The position numbers and the translations under genes are program-made. Shown here piece by piece: positions 40,203 to 57,195 of a stretch of 64,000 nucleotides of DNA (the first letter of the stretch is position 1; each line of letters begins with the position of its first letter). Source of the DNA: a virus (Duplodnaviria > Caudoviricetes); the IMG/VR virus record IMGVR_UViG_3300036976_000011, positions 1 through 64,000 of that record; one strand, given 5' to 3'. The notes under the pieces are model-generated. The model ran no database searches. It was not told where the DNA came from and was given only the letters and a program-made list of their open reading frames with translations.

Positions 40203-41174
40203 TCACCTCGCTACGCGTGCCCCCTGGTGATACTTGGCCGGCATTTCTCTCCACGCCACGCCATCCAGGTGGTGTCCGGCATGGGCTTTGCCGACGCGAT
40301 ACATCTCAGGCCAGCCGTCGCGCTGGTAAGTCCTTGACGCGGAAACCGGCATAATTTCATCAATAGTTTCCTGCGGCATGTTTACGGAATCTACCCATGC
40401 CCCCCACTGCTTGAAAAAGTACTTAGTTCCGTTCGCCTGACATTGGTCCCGTAGACTTCGCGCCCAGTCAGGATGCATGGGGCGTGCGCCGAGGCCTGTC
40501 TCACCGCCAACAATCACGAGAGAAATTGCCCGACGCTCCGCTTTGCCAATATTCTCCCACTGCTCAGTATTACAGCAGTCGCAAAAAGAGCTACCATGTT
40601 GCCAATCGCGGCAGTTGGGACACCGCCACTGTTGCAGGTATGGTTCCAGGTCAATCTCAGACAACAGCGGTTCACAACTCACAAACCGCACTGCCGCTGG
40701 CGTCTGCAAAAGGAGCGGTATACGCTCGTCGGCGGCTTTCTGGTTCTCGATGGTGACGCCGAGCCACAGATTAGGATAGGCCGCCTCTTTGGCATGACGC
40801 CACAAATATGCCATGCGCTTGGGGCGCTTGGTCAGGATTTGAAATGTGTGCTGTGGACACTTTGCGATAATGGCGAGTACGTCAAAAATGAACGCATCAG
40901 GCACGTCATCGTGAAACAAATCTCCCATAAACTGCACCCCAATCCGCGCTGGCTTCTTACGCCTTAGCGGTTTCTCAAGCCGGTCCTCAACCAACAGCGG
41001 CGGAATCTCGCCAGCGTAGGCCGCACGTTCATCGTCGGATATTTTTGGATTGCCAGCCAGTCGATTCGCCATGCGCAAGTGCCAGCAGTTGTCACAGCCT
41101 GCGGAAATCGGCTGGCAGCGCATGACGATTGGATTCCAGCTAAAATCCATGTATTCTATGCCTGTCTTGTTCAT
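40203..41174 (-). CDS. phage Gp37/Gp68 (DUF5131) protein
   Basis: T.IEYMD.SWNP..C..ISAGCDNC, MGDLFH, QILTKRP, FVSCEPLL, GGETG..ARPMHPDW, FFKQWG; carries a CPNC..CDCC insertion. Confidence 0.9.
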   Translation of the reverse strand: MNKTGIEYMDFSWNPIVMRCQPISAGCDNCWHLRMANRLAGNPKISDDERAAYAGEIPPLLVEDRLEKPLRRKKPARIGVQFMGDLFHDDVPDAFIFDVLAIIAKCPQHTFQILTKRPKRMAYLWRHAKEAAYPNLWLGVTIENQKAADERIPLLLQTPAAVRFVSCEPLLSEIDLEPYLQQWRCPNCRDWQHGSSFCDCCNTEQWENIGKAERRAISLVIVGGETGLGARPMHPDWARSLRDQCQANGTKYFFKQWGAWVDSVNMPQETIDEIMPVSASRTYQRDGWPEMYRVGKAHAGHHLDGVAWREMPAKYHQGARVAR

Positions 41175-41312
41175 GTCAGATTCTCTCCTCAAGCAAATCC
41201 CTAACTGCCTCTTTCGCCTCATCGGCCTCTAATCCAAGCGTCCAGAATAGCACAAAGGCGCGGTCAAGCTGTTCATGCTTCAGATATTTTTGAATCTGGT
41301 CAACTATCTCTA

Positions 41313-41403
41313 CGGTCCACCCTCGCGCCCACGGGGGAACCGAGAGACCGTAGTCTCTGGCGATTACCTGGTCACGGTCCACCCTCGCGCCCACGGGGGA
41401 ACC
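41313..41403 (-). CRISPR. mini-array: two identical 29-nt type I-E-like repeats and one 33-nt spacer
   Basis: GGTTCCCCCGTGGGCGCGAGGGTGGACCG at 41375-41403 and 41313-41341 (period 62); spacer TGACCAGGTAATCGCCAGAGACTACGGTCTCTC. Confidence 0.8.
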
Positions 41404-41600
41404 ACTAGGAATTTCCCGTGTAATGATTTCCCCGCGTGCATAGGGTTTTTAATGTCCAGTGTCCTCTCTGTGGCCCTCCCGTATTTTTCAACGGTACGAC
41501 ATCCACAGTCTTAGACACATTCACATTAAATTTGCAGACAATTGTCTCAGATGATCCGCTCTGACTCCGGCTAGCCGAAGCTGGAAGGCTTGTGCCTGCC
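41404..41600 (-). ncRNA. putative TnpB omegaRNA scaffold, continuous with the mini-array
   Basis: Overlaps the tnpB 3' end (GCCGGAGTCAGAGCGGATC...GGATGTCGTA pattern); contains CACGCGGGAA and CACGGGAA segments complementary to the repeat. Confidence 0.6.
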
Positions 41601-43052
41601 ATTTGCAGATTTAGCATCCCTAAACGCCATCTGTAGGAGCGGACCCGCACCCGACCAGCTTTCTTTCGCGTGGTCCGCGTTTAGGGTATCATTCTCGACA
41701 CATCTTGCTAGAAATGCCGAGTAAAGATCACGTTGAGCCTCTATGCCACATTCGCACTCGTGCCAACGTTGCGACAGAGGTTTTTTCTCTATCGTGCCGC
41801 AGCCGTGGCATATCTGGCTCAGTCTGGTACGATACGTCGAAAACTCCTCGACCCGACCGCCCGCGCCCTCAGTCTTGCGTCGCAACATCTCAACGAACGT
41901 ACCCGGTGCGCGCTTCCCGACCGATCTACCATACTGGCGCTGAAAGGCCCGGTAGGACAACTTTTCGGTCTTGACAACGTTGCCCATCCCAAGCACGCGG
42001 TTGGCAAGCCGGCCGTGCAGGCTCTTGCGGTACTCGGCCTGCCGGCGCTGCAACTCGGCCAGTTTCGCTTCCGTCTTGAGCATACGTTTGGACTTGTTGC
42101 GTGGTCTCTTGTCCTTGATGGCGCGCCCCTTTTCGTCGTAGCAGTCGGGGTTATTGGCACGCCGTTGTCGGTCCAACTTGCGCTGCAAAATCCGTATCTC
42201 GTGCTCGATGTCCTCAAGCTCTGCGCAGAATTGGACCAGAAAGGCGTCGTCCTCGCCTACTACTGCGACGGTGGACGGCCCAATGTCTAGGCCGACGACA
42301 GCGCCGTCAACTGTGGGATGTCGTTGTAGGGGATGGCCCTCTAGCACCAACTGGGCGTAGAACCGGTTGCGCCCGCTGATGACCTTGAGGATGATGCGCA
42401 CGTATTTGACCCGACAACCGAGGCCGTGGGCGTGGGTTGGGTCGTCCCGGTCCACGACGGCGGGTATTTCCAGGTCGCGCCACTGAACGTAATTGCCCTT
42501 GTCCCGCCAGCGCAAGCCCTGCAAGTTGGTGATGTTCTCCACGCTGCGCACCTGGCCGTACCGTTTGAATCTTGGCTTGCCGCAAAGGTCGCAGCGCCGG
42601 GTCTCTTTGGGTTTCTTGCACCTTCGACCATTCTTGCACGGCCTGTCGGTCCCAAACCGGTAACGGTTGACGCTCGTCCAAACACGAGCCGTAACAGCCT
42701 TGACCTCTTGGCTGCCCAGGTGGTCACGAATCCAGGAGTGTGTAAACTGTGTCGCCCAACTCATCAAATCGTATTTGCGTATGCCCACGGCTGCATCCGC
42801 TTGACGAAAGGCTTCTACCCGCGCCTTGTATTGTGCTTTTTGAGTAACCGTGGCGTCTTTCCCGTTTCTGCCCCTGGGCATCTTGCAGGCACGTCGGAAA
42901 GCCTTGGACTCGCGCAACAACTTCAACCGCTTCAGGCCCTCGCCCAATACGGCGTTGTGAACCTGGCGGGCGGTCTCAAAGCGCACCAGGAGTTTTTTTT
43001 CCTGACACGGCGTTGTCTTTAATGGCAATTCTAAAATAAATGTCTTGCTCAT
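41571..43052 (-). CDS. tnpB: TnpB RNA-guided nuclease (IS200/IS605 family), no tnpA
   Basis: RuvC-I VGLDIG, RuvC-II KTEKLS, CHGC..CECG zinc finger, RuvC-III QRDLYSA. All three catalytic acidic residues are present. Confidence 0.93.
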   Translation of the reverse strand: MSKTFILELPLKTTPCQEKKLLVRFETARQVHNAVLGEGLKRLKLLRESKAFRRACKMPRGRNGKDATVTQKAQYKARVEAFRQADAAVGIRKYDLMSWATQFTHSWIRDHLGSQEVKAVTARVWTSVNRYRFGTDRPCKNGRRCKKPKETRRCDLCGKPRFKRYGQVRSVENITNLQGLRWRDKGNYVQWRDLEIPAVVDRDDPTHAHGLGCRVKYVRIILKVISGRNRFYAQLVLEGHPLQRHPTVDGAVVGLDIGPSTVAVVGEDDAFLVQFCAELEDIEHEIRILQRKLDRQRRANNPDCYDEKGRAIKDKRPRNKSKRMLKTEAKLAELQRRQAEYRKSLHGRLANRVLGMGNVVKTEKLSYRAFQRQYGRSVGKRAPGTFVEMLRRKTEGAGGRVEEFSTYRTRLSQICHGCGTIEKKPLSQRWHECECGIEAQRDLYSAFLARCVENDTLNADHAKESWSGAGPLLQMAFRDAKSANGRHKPSSFG

Positions 43053-43059
43053 TCTCTGG

Positions 43060-43219
43060 CCTAACAAAAAACCAACCCCGTCGGTGCTTGTTCCTGTCAC
43101 AGAGTCAAGCCGGGGTTGGCTAGCATCGCCAGTCTGGCGCTATGCCTAAAAAACAAAAAGCTCCGACCTGACTAACTCTGTGACGATTCTATCGTATCAT
43201 GGTTCAAGCATAGTGTCAA
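43060..43219 (-). promoter_or_regulatory. tnpB promoter and structured 5' leader
   Basis: TTGACA-17-TACGAT (43191-43219); GTCACAGAGT/ACTCTGTGAC stem, GCATAGCGCCAG/CTGGCGATGC hairpin, CCAACCCCG/CGGGGTTGG pairing. Confidence 0.7.
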
Positions 43220-43309
43220 GCGGATCACCCTTCCCGCTTCAATCGTTTGGTGCGCAGTGCCCCTATCATACTCCCACTACGGCGATATGCAAGCCGCACA
43301 GCGTCAAAG

Positions 43310-43624
43310 CTATGCTAATTCCCACCTGCCCCGCTCTGGATTGACAACATGCCCCTTCTTTTTCGCCAGTGACAGGGCTGACCGCGTGTGCGGCAGTGAT
43401 ATCCCCATGTGCGCCGCTATTCCCGCTGGCGTATGTCGTCCGTCACGGATAGCGGTAAGAATGGCTTCGCGGCGCATGGGCTTGCGCCCGTCTTTGGTGC
43501 TAGGGCAGCGCCCGACGAGAGGATACCAGCGGTATGAAGTATCACGATTGCGCTCCCTGCGCTGCATGACGGCGCAAAAGACACAACGGCGATACACGCC
43601 TTCCAGTCTCCACTTATGGGCCAT
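43310..43624 (-). CDS. zinc-finger plus winged-helix protein
   Basis: CVFC..; ILTAIRDG..TPAGIA.HMGIS...RSALS.A.KKGHV. Confidence 0.6.
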   Translation of the reverse strand: MAHKWRLEGVYRRCVFCAVMQRRERNRDTSYRWYPLVGRCPSTKDGRKPMRREAILTAIRDGRHTPAGIAAHMGISLPHTRSALSLAKKKGHVVNPERGRWELA

Positions 43625-43970
43625 AGCGCAAACTCAAAAGTTTTGTTTTTGTTTTATTGATACGCCTCAGCTCTGTTGTAGCTTTTCGCTGCTCTCGCTT
43701 GCTAACTGGGTCTGGCGTACCATCTGGCAAGACCATGCGATTTTCCGCATACAGGTACGCCTCCTCAGCGTACCTGGCGAGGAGCCTATCCACGTCGTCA
43801 AGTGCAGCATTGACGACTCGCTCAATTTCTCTCTGCGCTCGCTCTAGTGGACGGAGCAAGTCGTCCGCGTTACAATAATCGCGCTTTTTGAGAAATTTTA
43901 CAAGAGAGCTAACACTTTTCCGCGCTTGATCCAATCGGTTCATTTCCCACCTCGACTTTATCATCTGCAT
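43614..43970 (-). CDS. hypothetical protein
   Basis: Coupled ORF. Confidence 0.55.
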   Translation of the reverse strand: MQMIKSRWEMNRLDQARKSVSSLVKFLKKRDYCNADDLLRPLERAQREIERVVNAALDDVDRLLARYAEEAYLYAENRMVLPDGTPDPVSKREQRKATTELRRINKTKTKLLSLRYGP

Positions 43971-44500
43971 TCTATAATATCACAGAACACAGATAAAATC
44001 AAGCGTTTTCAGGAATTTCTAACCTTTGTGGAGCTTTTCGTTTCACGCGCCGTTTGCAAGCGCGCCTGTGTCGCTCAAAATTGGCCCTAGCCAGTCCGCG
44101 TATTTTCACCGTCCCGAATGCGCCGGCGTGCCCAGGGACGCCCCAATACCAGGCAGGGAACCTTTTCTTGCAATGGGGGCAAACATAGTGATTGCTCATA
44201 ATAATAAACTTGGGCGTGCAATGCCTTGCGCGCCTCTGCACAAAAGCACGGGGCAAAGCACGCCCGGCGAGTTTGGGAGACTCGCTTTTACAGCTAATCC
44301 ATCGCCCGCCACAACATGGCGAACATCAACACGACGACGATAACCGATGCAAACTCTATCATTTTCAGCTACTTGATTTTTTCGCGGCAGTCGTCACAGT
44401 ATCCCCAGTTGCCACAGCTCGGGCAAATCGGGCGACCGCACGCGCCGCACGTTTGGTTGGTTTCATTTCCGCATTGGCATTTCACCGTTTTTTCTCCTTT

Positions 44501-52441: not shown

Positions 52442-52470
52442 ATTATAGCACACTTTAACCAGTGTGTCAA
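52442..52470 (-). promoter_or_regulatory. consensus sigma70 promoter (twin of 57202-57230)
   Basis: TTGACA-cactggttaaagtgtgc-TATAAT. Confidence 0.9.
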
Positions 52471-52913
52471 GTGTTTCGTTTGAATAGTAGCCCTTCCCGG
52501 CGGCACTTGGCCTGCACGGCCCTTGGTGTCCTGTCCAGTTTTTTAGCCATCGCGGAGCATGTCATCGTCTTGTAAAATTTGTGCAGAAACTCAACCTGGT
52601 CTTTCTGCCAATACATCGAGCCAACGCCAACGCCAAGCCTCTGCGCCCGCTGATTTACTGCTATTGCAGACCGCCCTAGTTCCTCTGCAAGTTCACTCGC
52701 TGGCAAATGTTTATTTGCTAGCAACCTAGCGTCATCTTCGTCTGTCCATCGCTTGAGCTTACGCAGCCCAAGTTGCCTGCGCTTTTGTTTTATGGCTTCG
52801 GCAGTGCGGTTGAGTCGCTTGCCTATCTGTTCATCAGTACAATGACGCCAGTACCATTTTAGGTATCGGGTTTCAAGGGAGGTCCAGGATTTGTTCGTTT
52901 TCATGTGTAGCAC
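52467..52913 (-). CDS. triple Myb/SANT-like repeat DNA-binding protein
   Basis: Three WTxxE/D...L...IG/LA..LxRT..AI..K/R...LG repeats. Confidence 0.75.
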   Translation of the reverse strand: MLHMKTNKSWTSLETRYLKWYWRHCTDEQIGKRLNRTAEAIKQKRRQLGLRKLKRWTDEDDARLLANKHLPASELAEELGRSAIAVNQRAQRLGVGVGSMYWQKDQVEFLHKFYKTMTCSAMAKKLDRTPRAVQAKCRREGLLFKRNT

Positions 52914-53638
52914 CGCACTTCTGGAAATTCAGCGGCAAAGCGGTTGAAACCTTCTAAATTCTCACACTTGCTTCGAGCTAGACCGCCGTAATCTGCCATC
53001 ATTCTTGTGACCCTGGCAGTAGTACGTACTTGCAAGCCTTGCTCCTTGTATAGATTCAAAAGCGGCAGGTTGTGCTCTGAAATATACGCCGCCAGGTCCA
53101 GGAGCTCCCACTCCATGATTGGACAACACCGGTATTTACTATCAACATATTTAAAAATAGTTGGATGGGGCTGTCCTTTCCAGCGGCTTGACAATGTTCG
53201 TTCTCTGTCCGCGCTTTCACCTTTAGATAGCCCCCAGTACCAACCGTCCCAATATTCACGCTTTGTCATAGTTTGTAAGTCCCATTGCCCCTTATCTCTA
53301 CTCTCTTGCCATGATTCAGAATTTGTAATATTAAGCGTCTGTACAATGGTTAATTCAATCGGCCATTGAGCCAAGAACGTCTCTATGACTTCCTGAAAAT
53401 TGTGTATCCACCATGATTCCTCTGAGGCAAGAAAGTACATTGGTATTTGTGGAGCAATTTGGTATATCATGTGTGCTAGGCAAACAGATTGTTTGCCAAA
53501 GGAGACTGAGACATACGCTCTTGGAGCTAGCCTGAGCATTTCCTCAATACCAGACAGAGCAAAATCTAATCTGTATCGCCTCTGCCGCAATCGAGCATAA
53601 AGCCTTGCTTCAGCCATTTGCCTTTCAAATATCTTCAT
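52901..53638 (-). CDS. cysH: CysH/PAPS-reductase-like protein of type IV-B CRISPR-Cas
   Basis: YVSVSFGKQS (PP-loop variant), WGLSKGESADR, CCPIMEW...DLAAYI..HNLP.L.LY. Confidence 0.85.
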   Translation of the reverse strand: MKIFERQMAEARLYARLRQRRYRLDFALSGIEEMLRLAPRAYVSVSFGKQSVCLAHMIYQIAPQIPMYFLASEESWWIHNFQEVIETFLAQWPIELTIVQTLNITNSESWQESRDKGQWDLQTMTKREYWDGWYWGLSKGESADRERTLSSRWKGQPHPTIFKYVDSKYRCCPIMEWELLDLAAYISEHNLPLLNLYKEQGLQVRTTARVTRMMADYGGLARSKCENLEGFNRFAAEFPEVRCYT

Positions 53639-54041
53639 TGCGTCGCCACTCCCACAAAGCTATTGCCAAAGCTGCCTCTACCGTTAGCCCAGAAACACAG
53701 CCGATCATAGGTATTTGCACTTTCTGCGCAGCGCGTAGCGACCTTGGCAATCCATTTGATTCACCACCAAGCACTATCGTCGTCACCTCGGACCAATCCG
53801 TTGATTCTATTGAGTGCTCGTAATAGGTTTCAAGAGCCAATAGGCCATACGGCAACGGCCAATCAGATAGCGTCTCCAGATCAACTCTATCCTTTGCCTT
53901 GAAAAGATTTCCGGCCAAGAGGGCGCTTCCGCAGTCCAATAACAAAAGCCGAGACACACCAAATGCTTCTGCGGTACGGTAGGCTCTATTCAGGTTCCGA
54001 TTTACTTGATAAAGTAGAACGTCCACCAAATACCTCGTCAT
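53625..54041 (-). CDS. minimal SPOUT (SpoU/TrmL-like) RNA 2'-O-methyltransferase
   Basis: NRNL.RAYRTAEAFG, IVLGGESNGLP, VQIPMIG...GLTVEAALAIALWE. Confidence 0.8.
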   Translation of the reverse strand: MTRYLVDVLLYQVNRNLNRAYRTAEAFGVSRLLLLDCGSALLAGNLFKAKDRVDLETLSDWPLPYGLLALETYYEHSIESTDWSEVTTIVLGGESNGLPRSLRAAQKVQIPMIGCVSGLTVEAALAIALWEWRRNEDI

Positions 54042-54525
54042 TCATAGCACGCCACGGGTGCTTCTTTCCCCTTGGCCTTTGCGCCATTTCTTTGGCCCAT
54101 CTGCGTCGCTGTTCCCACCATTTTGGCGAGCGATTATAAATCACGCCGCGCAAGTTATCAGGCGTGTATCTATACACAGTAAACTCAGATACACCAAGCT
54201 TGCTGGCAACTTCACAGCACCGCTTCCTTTGAACCAAGCGCATGTCAATAATTGCCTCGGTTGCATTCTGATAACCCAGCATCATCGCTTTCCTATCGGT
54301 CTCAGTTACGCTACTTCTGTTATCGTGCTTGTGAGCACTTTTGTCTATAGGCAATCCAAATAACTTTCTCCAATTGAAAAGCGCCCGTGTAGACACACCA
54401 AGCACGCCTGCTATCGTGCCCCACGAGCACCCCTGCTCGCGCATTCCGGCGATTACATCTTTGACCGGTTCTTCAAATTCACTCTCTATTCTATTCCACA
54501 ATTTTTGTCTCGTGGCAATGCTCAT
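53986..54525 (-). CDS. double HTH protein
   Basis: SWGTIAGVLGVSTRALFNWRK and CEVASKLGVSEFTVYRY. Confidence 0.7.
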   Translation of the reverse strand: MSIATRQKLWNRIESEFEEPVKDVIAGMREQGCSWGTIAGVLGVSTRALFNWRKLFGLPIDKSAHKHDNRSSVTETDRKAMMLGYQNATEAIIDMRLVQRKRCCEVASKLGVSEFTVYRYTPDNLRGVIYNRSPKWWEQRRRWAKEMAQRPRGKKHPWRAMNDEVFGGRSTLSSKSEPE

Positions 54526-55262
54526 CCTGGAACCGCCAAGCGTCTTTGGTGCTCAGGCCGGTAATAAGATGGTCTAAGACCATAATGCGCAATGTTGAAT
54601 GGCTTGAACTCGCCGTGTTGCTGGATGAGTTCAAGCGCGTCCTCTTTTGGCACACCACGCGTCAACTCACCATTACGCCAGAGCGACCAATTTTCCTGCC
54701 AACTTTCAACTGTCCAGAACACGCGCCCCCACCCCTGACTTGCTTTCTTTCCTATATGCGTCATGGTGCTAAGAAGCGCCTCAATTTCGCCTCTATCACC
54801 AATGCAATACCAATGCACGCGCTCGGCTACCCGCGCAAAGACCGGCATGTGATAAGCCCGATATTTGCCTTGTTCAACGATAACCTTCCCGCGTCGCGTG
54901 CCAAAGTCTACCAGGTCTGCGTACTGCGTGTCAAATCGCTTATTCCAGTGACTTGTGTCCTCTGCGATCCACCACGGCTGAGGCTGTGCCCACGAACACG
55001 CAAAATACCAGTCAGGTGTACCATGGTTGATGATTTTGAGCGGCATGTGAATCCCGCGCAGGTTCGTCCTGACACCGCCCGGCAGCGTGGCCTGCTGTGG
55101 ACCGTGTGCTAGCCTATGCGCCTGATACCACAAGAGACCGTCTAGTGGCAACCACTGGTCACATATTGGATTCGTGCGGAATCGCGCCGTGACACGCAAT
55201 GGCTCGTAAGCTTTACCGTAAGGCATTGAGTAGCTCCCGGATATTGTCAGCATGGCTCTCAA
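54522..55262 (-). CDS. csf3: Csf3 (Cas5-like RAMP), type IV
   Basis: PLRVTA, LPLDGLL, YFACSW, G.YRAYHMP, WYCIGD..EIE.LL....HIGKK.SQGWGRV, RP.Y. Confidence 0.88.
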   Translation of the reverse strand: MRAMLTISGSYSMPYGKAYEPLRVTARFRTNPICDQWLPLDGLLWYQAHRLAHGPQQATLPGGVRTNLRGIHMPLKIINHGTPDWYFACSWAQPQPWWIAEDTSHWNKRFDTQYADLVDFGTRRGKVIVEQGKYRAYHMPVFARVAERVHWYCIGDRGEIEALLSTMTHIGKKASQGWGRVFWTVESWQENWSLWRNGELTRGVPKEDALELIQQHGEFKPFNIAHYGLRPSYYRPEHQRRLAVPG

Positions 55263-56184
55263 GATGGCTCATGTAGCGATTGCCAAGCGGCAAGTCAACG
55301 TCTTTTCCCGTTGGCGCGATACGTGGATTTATCTCTATCCACTTGTCGAAGCTGATAGAGACTTTGCCATGCCCTGTGCCGGACTTGCCACCGATGTACG
55401 GCCTGCGCCCAAACTCTGCCAGCGTCACAGCGAATGCTTCAAATTCTACGTCTGTCACATCATCAAGCGCAATTTCCCAAAAGAAACGTGTGCCTGCCGC
55501 CAGCGTCTCGACCTGGTATCTCATTTGCTGCTTTTGGCCCGTTTTTTTTACCACATCCTGGTCTGTACCGGTTTTGGCGCGCTCATCTGCCGCCTTGGCC
55601 TCAAGCAAGCCACGTACCTCTGGCGCTATCAACTGACGTAGCTTTTCGTCTTTCTCATCGTCCTTGCGCGTGAACGCTTCGCGCTGGCACAAATCCCACA
55701 CCGAGACGAGCTCGCCGTCTGTGAAACGATCCGGCAGAATCCATGCAGTTTCTTCGCAAATCGGGATGACCTTACCGAATTTAGCCTTCCCAGGCAACAT
55801 CTGATTCCCACACGCCGCGCCAAAGAGCGCCAGAAGTGGGATAGCCTCGCGCCACTGCCGCGCCTTGTCAATATCAAGACCGCGGGAACCACCTTTTTCC
55901 AACGCGCCACCAGAAAAGAGCATGTAATACGCTGCCAGGCTCAAACCATGCACCTCTCCGTTTTCGTTCACGCCATAGCCAAGCTGACGTAGCATGTGGT
56001 ACATTCCAATGTCGCGGAAAAGTCCCCGCATCGAGTTGCCGCTAATAATTGGCACGATCTCTACCGTACCGTTACCTTGCGCTACCTTTTCGCGTCGCAG
56101 CATTGAGTTGATACCGTGTGTCTCTCCGATGTGCGAGATGCTGGTTAGCGCCGTAACGACGCCCTCAAAAATGTACGTGTGCAT
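55213..56184 (-). CDS. csf2: Csf2 (Cas7-like backbone), type IV
   Basis: LTSISH, VPIISGNSMRG..R, LFSGG.L, PL.ALFG, L.GK, IGGKSGTGHG. Confidence 0.92.
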   Translation of the reverse strand: MHTYIFEGVVTALTSISHIGETHGINSMLRREKVAQGNGTVEIVPIISGNSMRGLFRDIGMYHMLRQLGYGVNENGEVHGLSLAAYYMLFSGGALEKGGSRGLDIDKARQWREAIPLLALFGAACGNQMLPGKAKFGKVIPICEETAWILPDRFTDGELVSVWDLCQREAFTRKDDEKDEKLRQLIAPEVRGLLEAKAADERAKTGTDQDVVKKTGQKQQMRYQVETLAAGTRFFWEIALDDVTDVEFEAFAVTLAEFGRRPYIGGKSGTGHGKVSISFDKWIEINPRIAPTGKDVDLPLGNRYMSHLESHADNIRELLNALR

Positions 56185-56585
56185 TATGCCTCCTCAAATA
56201 GCGGAGCGTCTAGCGCCGCCTCTAGCTCATCTTGTTCTTTCCGACGTGCCTTGTACTCATCTTGTGCGTCCTGATTGCGTACGCGCACCATGAGCACGAG
56301 CAATATCGTTTCGTCCCTCATCAATTTCAAAATTGATCTATCCCGCCCCGAGTTTAATATCTTATTGGCTTCTACCTTCTCTGCTTTTGTCTTGCCGACG
56401 TTGGCATTAAGATTCAAACAAAGAGAGCTGACGAACGTCCCCAGGCTGCTCGTGTACGCTGCACTCCTCACCTGGTCCTCGAACTGTTGCCATATCGTCG
56501 TTCGGTAACGGCTCTTGTAATCTGGTGGTACGCCGCGCCAAATTATCCACAGAAACTCTGCCGCCTCTTGATGCTCTGGTGTCAT
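56184..56585 (-). CDS. cas11: Cas11-like small subunit, type IV-B
   Basis: Helical protein ...IWQQFEDQVRSAAYTSSL..F...L..MRDET..LV..VR between csf1 and csf2; AGGAG RBS. Confidence 0.78.
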   Translation of the reverse strand: MTPEHQEAAEFLWIIWRGVPPDYKSRYRTTIWQQFEDQVRSAAYTSSLGTFVSSLCLNLNANVGKTKAEKVEANKILNSGRDRSILKLMRDETILLVLMVRVRNQDAQDEYKARRKEQDELEAALDAPLFEEA

Positions 56586-57195
56586 CTTTGCTCCTTTGCG
56601 CCAGGAATAGCGCCAATTGAAAGAGCAAGCCACCGCGCTTGCTCTTGATCCCACTCTCCAAAGTCCACCACTGTTCCACGCCAAACTGGCGAACTCTGTG
56701 CTGTACGTAATCACCTGTCTCGATTTCCTCTTTAGAAAATTGGGCGTGGAGGGATTCAACTAATGTCAGAAGCTCTTTTAATTCCATTGGCTGGACAAAA
56801 AGAGATTGCTCCTCAAACTGCACCCACCCACACGTTGCACCTAGCGGGTTCCGCCGCGCCCTAAAGACAATATGTTTTTGACCACTTTCTGCTATCGTGG
56901 CTAGCTCTGGAAAAGGCACACCCAAGAGGATGCTTTGCATGTGTTGCTTATCAGCCTTACTAAGTGGTATCCACATACCGCTGACAACAAAGTGAGAGTA
57001 GTTGCGCATGCGCTGGGGCTTGTCTTTACCAACCAACGCAGCAAGCTCTGCGGAGCGTTCGTCAAACCAAAACAAACAACTGTCACATACACCATCACCA
57101 TCAAGCAGTTTGTCATGGTCAACAAATGTGGGCTTGACCCACCTGTTGAAATCAGTCATGTCATCTGATTCATTACCGCAAAATCTACACAGCAT
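56407..57195 (-). CDS. csf1: Csf1 (Cas8-like), type IV
   Basis: CRFCG..TF.DHD.L..VCDSC, MRNYSH, P.L..IAESGQKHI.FRA, FSKEEI.TG.Y. Confidence 0.85.
   Translation of the reverse strand: MLCRFCGNESDDMTDFNRWVKPTFVDHDKLLDGDGVCDSCLFWFDERSAELAALVGKDKPQRMRNYSHFVVSGMWIPLSKADKQHMQSILLGVPFPELATIAESGQKHIVFRARRNPLGATCGWVQFEEQSLFVQPMELKELLTLVESLHAQFSKEEIETGDYVQHRVRQFGVEQWWTLESGIKSKRGGLLFQLALFLAQRSKDDTRASRGGRVSVDNLARRTTRLQEPLPNDDMATVRGPGEECSVHEQPGDVRQLSLFES

Follow-up and report, generated by a model that had tools for sequence, protein, structure and literature searches.

An omegaRNA-like scaffold that leads into a type I-E-like mini-array downstream from a phage tnpB gene

INTRODUCTION

Does a tnpB gene that is followed by two repeats and a spacer form with them a single guided nuclease system, or do the two merely lie side by side? 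The question is raised by a locus on the minus strand of the virus record IMGVR_UViG_3300036976_000011 (Duplodnaviria; Caudoviricetes). The window, that is, the whole stretch of 64,000 nt that was analyzed, is the first 64 kb of this IMG/VR record, a phage genome of 90,407 bp with direct terminal repeats and rated 100% complete. [quoted passage not shown] Our analysis leads to the view that the locus is probably a domesticated and mostly phage-borne TnpB of the TranC or type V-U kind, with the terminal stem of the omegaRNA re-formed by pairing between an anti-repeat and the repeat, in cis for spacer 1. Systems of such a kind have been described before, namely TranC, the type V-U branches and Cas12r (PMC10691335; bioRxiv 10.64898/2026.03.27.714800; bioRxiv 10.64898/2026.04.20.719267).

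RESULTS

The repeats and the TnpB protein

Along the minus strand, the elements follow each other in the order promoter, terminator-like hairpin, tnpB, ~165 nt of noncoding sequence, and repeat–spacer–repeat (Table 1). The two repeats are, as predicted, identical over 29 nt (30 with one flanking base), where chance would lead one to expect none, and they enclose a spacer of 33 nt. No further copy occurs in the window or in the whole phage. On the tnpB strand, the repeat starts with 5′ GGTT, forms a 7-bp C/G stem closed by a 4-nt loop, and finishes with a 3′ tail ending in GGACCG. The type I-E layout proposed for it is borne out, with one C–A mismatch in the stem. The characteristic traits of type I-E arrays are present (a 29-nt repeat, a stem–loop, an 8-nt 3′ handle and spacers of ~32–33 nt); Cas1 and Cas6e gave no match in the phage, and no host array with this repeat turned up in the contig collections or the 401 Anaerolineae genomes searched.

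The protein matches the Pfam family PF07282 (Cas12f1-like TNB domain). Its RuvC motifs are GLDIGP, KTEKLS and QRDLYSA, and the residues D256, E363 and D442, together with those of the zinc finger, are invariant in alignments of 10 and of 40 homologues. The AlphaFold model (mean predicted local distance difference test, pLDDT, of 87) has as best PDB matches the TnpB of ISFba1, Cas12p, AsCas12f, the TnpB of ISDra2 and LaTranC, all at ~12–16% identity; the Foldseek E-values for the ISFba1 and ISDra2 proteins are 1e-11 to 1e-13. A PDB search with the sequence only gave marginal matches, to Cas12p and LaTranC. The prediction of a RuvC-intact tnpB that lacks its tnpA also stands, since family searches of the whole phage gave zero matches for Y1 TnpA, and likewise for Cas1 and Cas6e. 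The phage holds one copy of tnpB.

The layout is shared by a clade of relatives

A protein search with the window TnpB gave >2,600 homologues, and the DNA of the nearest ones was examined. Scans of metagenome and genome collections yielded 160 further loci, in which direct repeats downstream from the gene were sought mechanically. Repeats of the I-E-like type, from two to 16 in number, follow the homologues at 76%, 66%, 58%, 52% (two lineages), 51% and 44% identity, in the same position and orientation downstream from the scaffold, and the spacers (31–34 nt long in the clade) differ wherever they are seen. The homologue at 76% (L007) has two repeats and that at 66% (L008) three, with different spacers and somewhat different repeat sequences; at 84%, the contig ends within repeat 1. 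Among the 160 further loci, arrays occur in L012/L013 and L100 only. L012 and L013 (52%) are one locus from two samples, with eight and six repeats, and they differ by two internal repeat–spacer units (L012:4578–5039 vs. L013:1698–2035) in an array of degenerate repeats. L100 (44%) has 16 identical repeats and sits in the complete chromosome of an Anaerolineae metagenome-assembled genome (MAG).

A FastTree phylogeny was computed from 238 TnpB homologues. The array-bearing loci known at that time, seven in number, all fall in one clade (29 of the 238 tips, support 0.999), and no locus with enough downstream DNA inside this clade is array-less. In the three members for which an array was then predicted from the tree, P0009 (L170/L171), P0043 (L172/L173) and P0115 (L174/L175), the scaffold is followed by I-E-like repeats; the layout is present in every clade member with downstream DNA available. 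A downstream array conserved across a TnpB-like clade, as in TranC and type V-U systems, is thus found. The flanks are not homologous among members: homology with the window starts at about the start codon, with no conserved left end upstream, and the surroundings consist mostly of genes of phages (Dam, thymidylate synthase, terminase and portal, ParB-methylase, SNF2 helicase). IMG/VR searched with the TnpB protein alone gave no relative, and with the adjacent DUF5131 protein it gave 77 loci at 49% identity at most, without a close relative of the phage backbone and none with this TnpB.

The original prediction looked to homologous loci for the same repeat with different spacers, and took absence of the repeats from all close TnpB homologues as evidence against it. 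Arrays are present in the homologues at 44–76% identity and the layout is kept with different spacers; what varies is the repeat itself, which differs somewhat between members. The word "nascent" is too strong, since the association must be old if it is shared by proteins of as little as 44% identity and includes arrays with as many as 16 repeats.

Two members show additional features. In the 84% homologue (L005:739–1045 and L006:1–126), the intact tnpB is immediately preceded, on its upstream side, by the remnant of a second copy; this remnant consists of the last ~160 nt of tnpB and the scaffold, ends in ...GAAAACCCAT, and is without anti-repeat or full repeat, which suggests tandem or decayed modules. 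In L100 (4603–4666), a degenerate repeat-like hairpin precedes the first true repeat by ~63 nt, or one period, on the upstream side. Its place is that of the terminal hairpin of the ancestral omegaRNA, and this "repeat zero" is followed by a segment of spacer length.

The scaffold and the anti-repeat

The scaffold segment, which begins within the 3′ part of tnpB, is conserved in L005, L007, L008, L170 and L172, which belong to the subclade of the window. Of the 57 pairs in the RNAalifold consensus, 23 show compensatory changes on both sides, and it is on this ground that ~41652–41442 is read as a structured RNA. In the manner of omegaRNAs, it overlaps the gene at its 3′ end. No Rfam family matched over 40500–44000 at E-values up to 1. 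The locus presents features of an OMEGA nuclease: the RuvC D-E-D residues and zinc finger, the TnpB fold, and a structured omegaRNA over the 3′ end of the gene.

In the minimum-energy fold, the anti-repeat (41428–41439) pairs with the 5′ half of the repeat, and the neighboring CCCU of the scaffold (41442–41445) pairs with AGGG of the repeat. Two upstream segments had been proposed to pair in this way; the second (~41412–41420) forms an apical hairpin instead and is not another anti-repeat. Folded in cis, the window, L008, L170, L012 and L174 give one long terminal hairpin, which is formed in part only in L007 and L100 and is not formed in L172. In L007 and L012, the internal hairpin of I-E type is weakened and the anti-repeat pairing retained.

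Anti-repeat and repeat change together. The pairing GGGGAA:TTCCCC of the window is replaced on both sides in L007 by GGAGTAAC:GTTACTCC, and joint changes occur also in L008, L170 and L172. Over eight lineages, cognate anti-repeat:repeat duplexes have a mean energy of −18.8 kcal/mol vs. −15.6 kcal/mol for non-cognate ones (permutation p = 0.012). A column-wise count of pairs in alignment A4 was dropped, because MAFFT misaligned the window and L007 by one column in the anti-repeat; duplex energies and cis folds were used. An omegaRNA-derived helper that pairs with the repeat, as in TranC and type V-U systems, is found computationally through folds and co-variation. The core of the original prediction, an omegaRNA that continues into a mini-array by way of a built-in anti-repeat, is supported by the clade-wide layout, the differing spacers, the co-variation and the compensatory pairs.

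Comparison with array-less sister elements

Sister elements at 37–57% identity are typical multi-copy transposons. In these array-less relatives, the 3′ end of the scaffold reads AGAACCCCC, after which come a short hairpin, then GGGG and finally the tail AGTGGTCAG. Conservation in three multi-copy element sets stops exactly past the C/G terminal hairpin and this tail, and the stop marks the right end and the start of the guide. In the array clade, the AAACCC motif is kept, and the segment next to it is complementary to the repeat in its 5′ half. The G-run of the repeat closes on the C-run of the scaffold, with the 7-nt tail UGGACCG before the spacer. The 3′ end of the repeat (GGGTGGACCG) takes the position of the sister tail and resembles it. 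The spacer would then replace the fixed guide of the transposon, and the repeat would provide the 3′ strand and the tail of the ancestral terminal stem.

The marks of IS200/IS605 mobility (TnpA or conserved ends, several copies, a fixed guide in the flank) are absent from the locus, and tnpB is single-copy also in the sole complete host chromosome examined. Because TnpA, conserved ends and further copies are all lacking, we read the tnpB as domesticated, and the locus therefore as a type V-like effector of TnpB size, carried by a phage and equipped with a mini-array.

Other features of the locus

The promoter-like site upstream of tnpB is the sole one found by the consensus scan in 41000–43400. 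The hairpin that follows it could be an attenuator or the end of an upstream operon. The trailer past the last repeat may possibly act as a second, fixed guide, by analogy with the last repeat of Cas12r. Downstream from the array lies a DUF5131 gene, which probably starts at the ATG at 41174, since the Pfam match begins at residue 19 of the longest open reading frame (ORF); ~140 nt would therefore separate the array from the next gene. Further away, the genes of a type IV-B-like operon gave matches with significant E-values, all of them under the curated cut-offs.

Table 1. Coordinates of features in the 64,000-nt window
Feature	Position	Strand	Remarks
Promoter, sigma-70-like	43191–43219	−	TTGACA, 17-nt spacer, TG-extended TACGAT; upstream of tnpB; consensus scan; putative function
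Terminator-like hairpin and T-run	43071–43085	−	between promoter and tnpB start, ~100 nt past the promoter
tnpB	41571–43052	−	493 aa and stop; RuvC triad D256/E363/D442 and zinc finger intact
omegaRNA-like scaffold	41442–41652	−	overlaps last ~80 nt of tnpB; 3′ end is the conserved ...GGACATTAAAAACCC motif
Anti-repeat	41428–41439	−	minus-strand GCACGCGGGGAA; pairs with 5′ half of repeat
Linker	41404–41427	−	small apical hairpin between anti-repeat and repeat 1; includes CACGGGAA
Repeat 1	41375–41403	−	29 nt, I-E-like, scaffold-proximal
Spacer 1	41342–41374	−	33 nt; at the expected omegaRNA guide position
Repeat 2	41313–41341	−	same sequence as repeat 1
Trailer	41280–41312	−	past the last repeat; possible second (fixed) guide
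DUF5131 gene	40203–41222	−	phage Gp37/Gp68-type
Type IV-B-like operon	52467–57195	−
Csf2/Cas7-like	55213–56184	−	in type IV-B-like operon
Csf3/Cas5-like	54522–55262	−	in type IV-B-like operon
SPOUT methyltransferase-like	53625–54041	−	in type IV-B-like operon
CysH/PAPS-reductase-like	52901–53638	−	in type IV-B-like operon

Comparison with described systems

The locus is a real example of the recently described step from transposon to CRISPR-Cas12, and its lineage matched none of those tested. The closest described system is Cas12r, a TnpB-like nuclease of Thermus Lalka phages (Trofimova et al.) for which plasmid and phage interference has been shown (bioRxiv 10.64898/2026.04.20.719267). Its 29-bp repeats share elements with I-E repeats, its spacers are 31–33 nt long, and its last repeat yields a CRISPR RNA (crRNA) with 18 nt of downstream sequence; the authors propose a dependence on the host I-E adaptation module (bioRxiv 10.64898/2026.04.20.719267). 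The 29-bp I-E-like repeats, the spacers of such length, the phage-borne location and the lack of adaptation genes are all found here too. Identity with Cas12r is rejected, since the effectors show no similarity detectable in sequence: BLASTP gave E = 2.5 against LalCas12r of Lalka27a (PQ109076), and tblastn of a phage collection that includes Lalka27a did not return it. Cas12r has 564 aa and the present protein 493. The Lalka array lies 15 bp past the stop codon, with no tracrRNA (trans-activating crRNA) detected, whereas here a conserved scaffold of ~210 nt and the anti-repeat precede the array. Cas12r comes from thermophiles, whereas the nearest named relatives here are Anaerolineae MAGs. 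The two proteins appear at most very distantly related, and their arrays of I-E format would be convergent.

TranC systems (Jin et al., Cell 2025; PDB 9jfo and 9jfq) are presented as transposon–CRISPR intermediates, and in the features given in bioRxiv 10.64898/2026.03.27.714800 they have repeats of 32–38 bp and a tracrRNA derived from the right-end RNA. As far as that account goes, they resemble the present locus in having a TnpB-sized effector nested among transposon TnpBs, no adaptation genes, a short array downstream from the gene, a guide RNA divided into a crRNA and a helper that derives from the omegaRNA and is joined to the crRNA by pairing of repeat and anti-repeat, and phage-borne examples (CauTranC9). 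The TranC repeats described there are, at 32–38 bp, not I-E-like, in contrast to the 29-nt I-E-like repeats of the window. Between LaTranC and the window TnpB, phmmer gave a marginal E = 0.009, and the identity in the structure alignment is ~12–14%.

Altae-Tran et al. (PNAS 2023) described 40 TnpB-derived, array-linked branches (V-U6 to V-U45) with arrays downstream from the gene (PMC10691335). By description, the nucleases of these branches too derive from TnpB, the array downstream is conserved, cas1, cas2 and cas4 are usually missing, and the origins were many and independent (PMC10691335). That survey left out arrays attributed to non-type-V systems (PMC10691335), and I-E-like arrays may therefore have been filtered out. 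With the TnpB of IS200/IS605 elements (ISDra2, ISFba1), the locus shares the fold, the RuvC triad, the zinc finger and the scaffold over the 3′ end of the gene; it differs from them in being single-copy, without TnpA or conserved ends, and in having a repeat–spacer array in place of the fixed guide.

Host arrays

The Anaerolineae MAG G001 (OZ241372.1), the one host chromosome examined, contains a type I-E system. Between the repeat of this system and that of the TnpB-linked array, 3 of 26 positions differ. This I-E repeat is also scattered over dozens of mostly non-coding-looking sites outside the main array (501.6–506.2 kb), for example at 107027, 446841, 543609, 704187, 745397, 1315007, 1417609 and 2665750. 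The scattered repeats are single copies or mini-arrays of two to three repeats, with no shared flanking sequence.

DISCUSSION

A possible mode of action

In the arrangement that we favor, tnpB, the scaffold and the mini-array would be co-transcribed, with the minus strand as the coding strand. At its 3′ end, the scaffold (by the C-run and the 12-nt anti-repeat) would pair with the 5′ half and the G-run of the repeat and rebuild the long terminal stem of the ancestral omegaRNA. The 7-nt tail UGGACCG would be left directly before the spacer, at the position where the guide starts in array-less relatives. Repeat 1, pairing in cis, would give a natural single-guide RNA for spacer 1, and later repeats would pair in trans after processing. 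The RuvC-intact TnpB would cut DNA matching the spacer, presumably that of competing phages or other mobile elements. The locus may correspond to the "functional RNA split" proposed for TranC, with the first unit still joined in cis. Spacers and processing may be supplied by type I-E Cas1–Cas2, perhaps with Cas6e, of the host: the I-E-like sizes of repeats and spacers point to such a use, and the difference of only three positions in 26 between the I-E repeat of G001 and that of the TnpB-linked array suggests that adaptation, and perhaps Cas6e, is borrowed.

Several observations weigh against this interpretation. The window array has a single spacer, and the I-E-type hairpin of the repeat competes with the anti-repeat pairing. 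The co-variation statistic is modest (p = 0.012 for eight lineages), and the complementarity between C-runs and G-runs raises the stability of all duplexes and inflates the energies. The search for targets of spacer 1 proposed with the original prediction was run on IMG/VR, INPHARED, the window and the phage and gave no match: the window spacer had no protospacer in IMG/VR when used as a 20-mer, none in the window when used as the full 33-mer, and none in the INPHARED phage collection with a 111-nt array query that includes it. The spacers of three relatives have no protospacer in IMG/VR (the IMG/VR spacer searches used 20–24-mers and exact matches only), and 38 spacers and trailers have none in all the loci retrieved and the whole phage. 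The exact repeat core (25–27 nt) is absent from viral and genome contig collections, and 401 Anaerolineae genomes gave no match to a 28-nt version with up to three mismatches. The type IV-B-like operon of the phage, which is array-less, could also use crRNAs of this sort. Spacer 11 of L100 matches L109:3029–3049 at 20 of 21 nt, in the 5′ end of a tnpB homologue of a Chlamydiae MAG, possibly by chance.

Alternative explanations

If the repeats formed a mini-array of the ordinary kind known from viruses, or acted as an RNA anti-CRISPR (a repeat decoy), which uses or blocks the I-E Cascade of the host, the tnpB would be the remnant of a neighboring insertion sequence (IS). The 29-nt repeat, the 31–34-nt spacers, the stem–loop and the 3′ handle are indeed all of type I-E, both mini-arrays and single repeat units have been well described from viruses (PMC11656645), and the I-E repeat of G001 is close to that of the TnpB-linked array. 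We nevertheless consider this explanation improbable. Chance adjacency cannot give a linkage that holds through 44–100% protein identity in unrelated flanks, and it leaves unexplained why the anti-repeat co-varies with the repeat. The described viral mini-arrays have host-identical repeats, and none was found here in the contig collections or the 401 Anaerolineae genomes; moreover, L007 and L012 weaken the I-E hairpin yet keep the anti-repeat pairing. Cascade may use the array in addition to TnpB, in a dual role. Type IV-B complexes are reported to bind heterogeneous RNA without dedicated arrays, which makes less pressing the idea that the mini-array guides such a complex of the phage itself (Csf2/Csf3 and CysH-like, ~52.9–56.2 kb). 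Its Csf2-, Csf3- and CysH-like genes lie ~11 kb away, without Cas6 or an array of their own, and the phage has no other copy of the repeat. The array, however, goes with tnpB: no csf gene was called within 5 kb in L172, in L174 or around P0054, and the flanks of the module differ in every member, so that a role in guiding this complex appears very unlikely.

Finally, tnpB could still belong to an active IS200/IS605-type element whose insertion took place next to, or within, an I-E array that was already there, with the repeats being simply the flank that is read as a fixed guide. The sister elements are multi-copy transposons with sharp right ends, the tnpB of G001 lies at the leader side of its 16-repeat array, and insertion near pre-existing arrays has been kept open as one origin of type V arrays (PMC10691335). 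Against a present-day insertion stand the absence of TnpA from the phage, the single copy and the lack of a conserved left end. In every clade member, the right-end hairpin is replaced by the anti-repeat/repeat stem, and the junction is therefore inherited and not the product of a fresh insertion. We give this explanation hardly any weight; insertion near an array is possible as the historical origin.

Origin and significance

Returning to the domesticated TnpB, its array might have been born on the transposon end itself: the terminal hairpin and tail of the omegaRNA, being similar to an I-E repeat, would have been used as a pseudo-repeat by host I-E Cas1–Cas2, which would have integrated spacers and duplicated the hairpin. 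We put this forward tentatively, as a rather unlikely course of events. If it were true, the array would be shared by the TnpB effector and the host Cascade, and the right end of a transposon would have led directly to a CRISPR array, in a format that fits both class 1 and class 2 machinery.

Type V effectors arose many times from TnpB, and few natural intermediates show the passage from a fixed to an exchangeable guide. The present clade keeps the whole omegaRNA scaffold and offers a base-pair-level view of how a repeat may replace the ancestral right end. The protein, with its 493 aa and its natural single-guide arrangement, is in addition a candidate for a compact editor. That repeats and spacers have the I-E format points to a borrowed class 1 adaptation module of the host. 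Together with Cas12r, at least two unrelated lineages of phage TnpB would have arrays of I-E format, which suggests a general route by which phages may build guided nucleases of their own.

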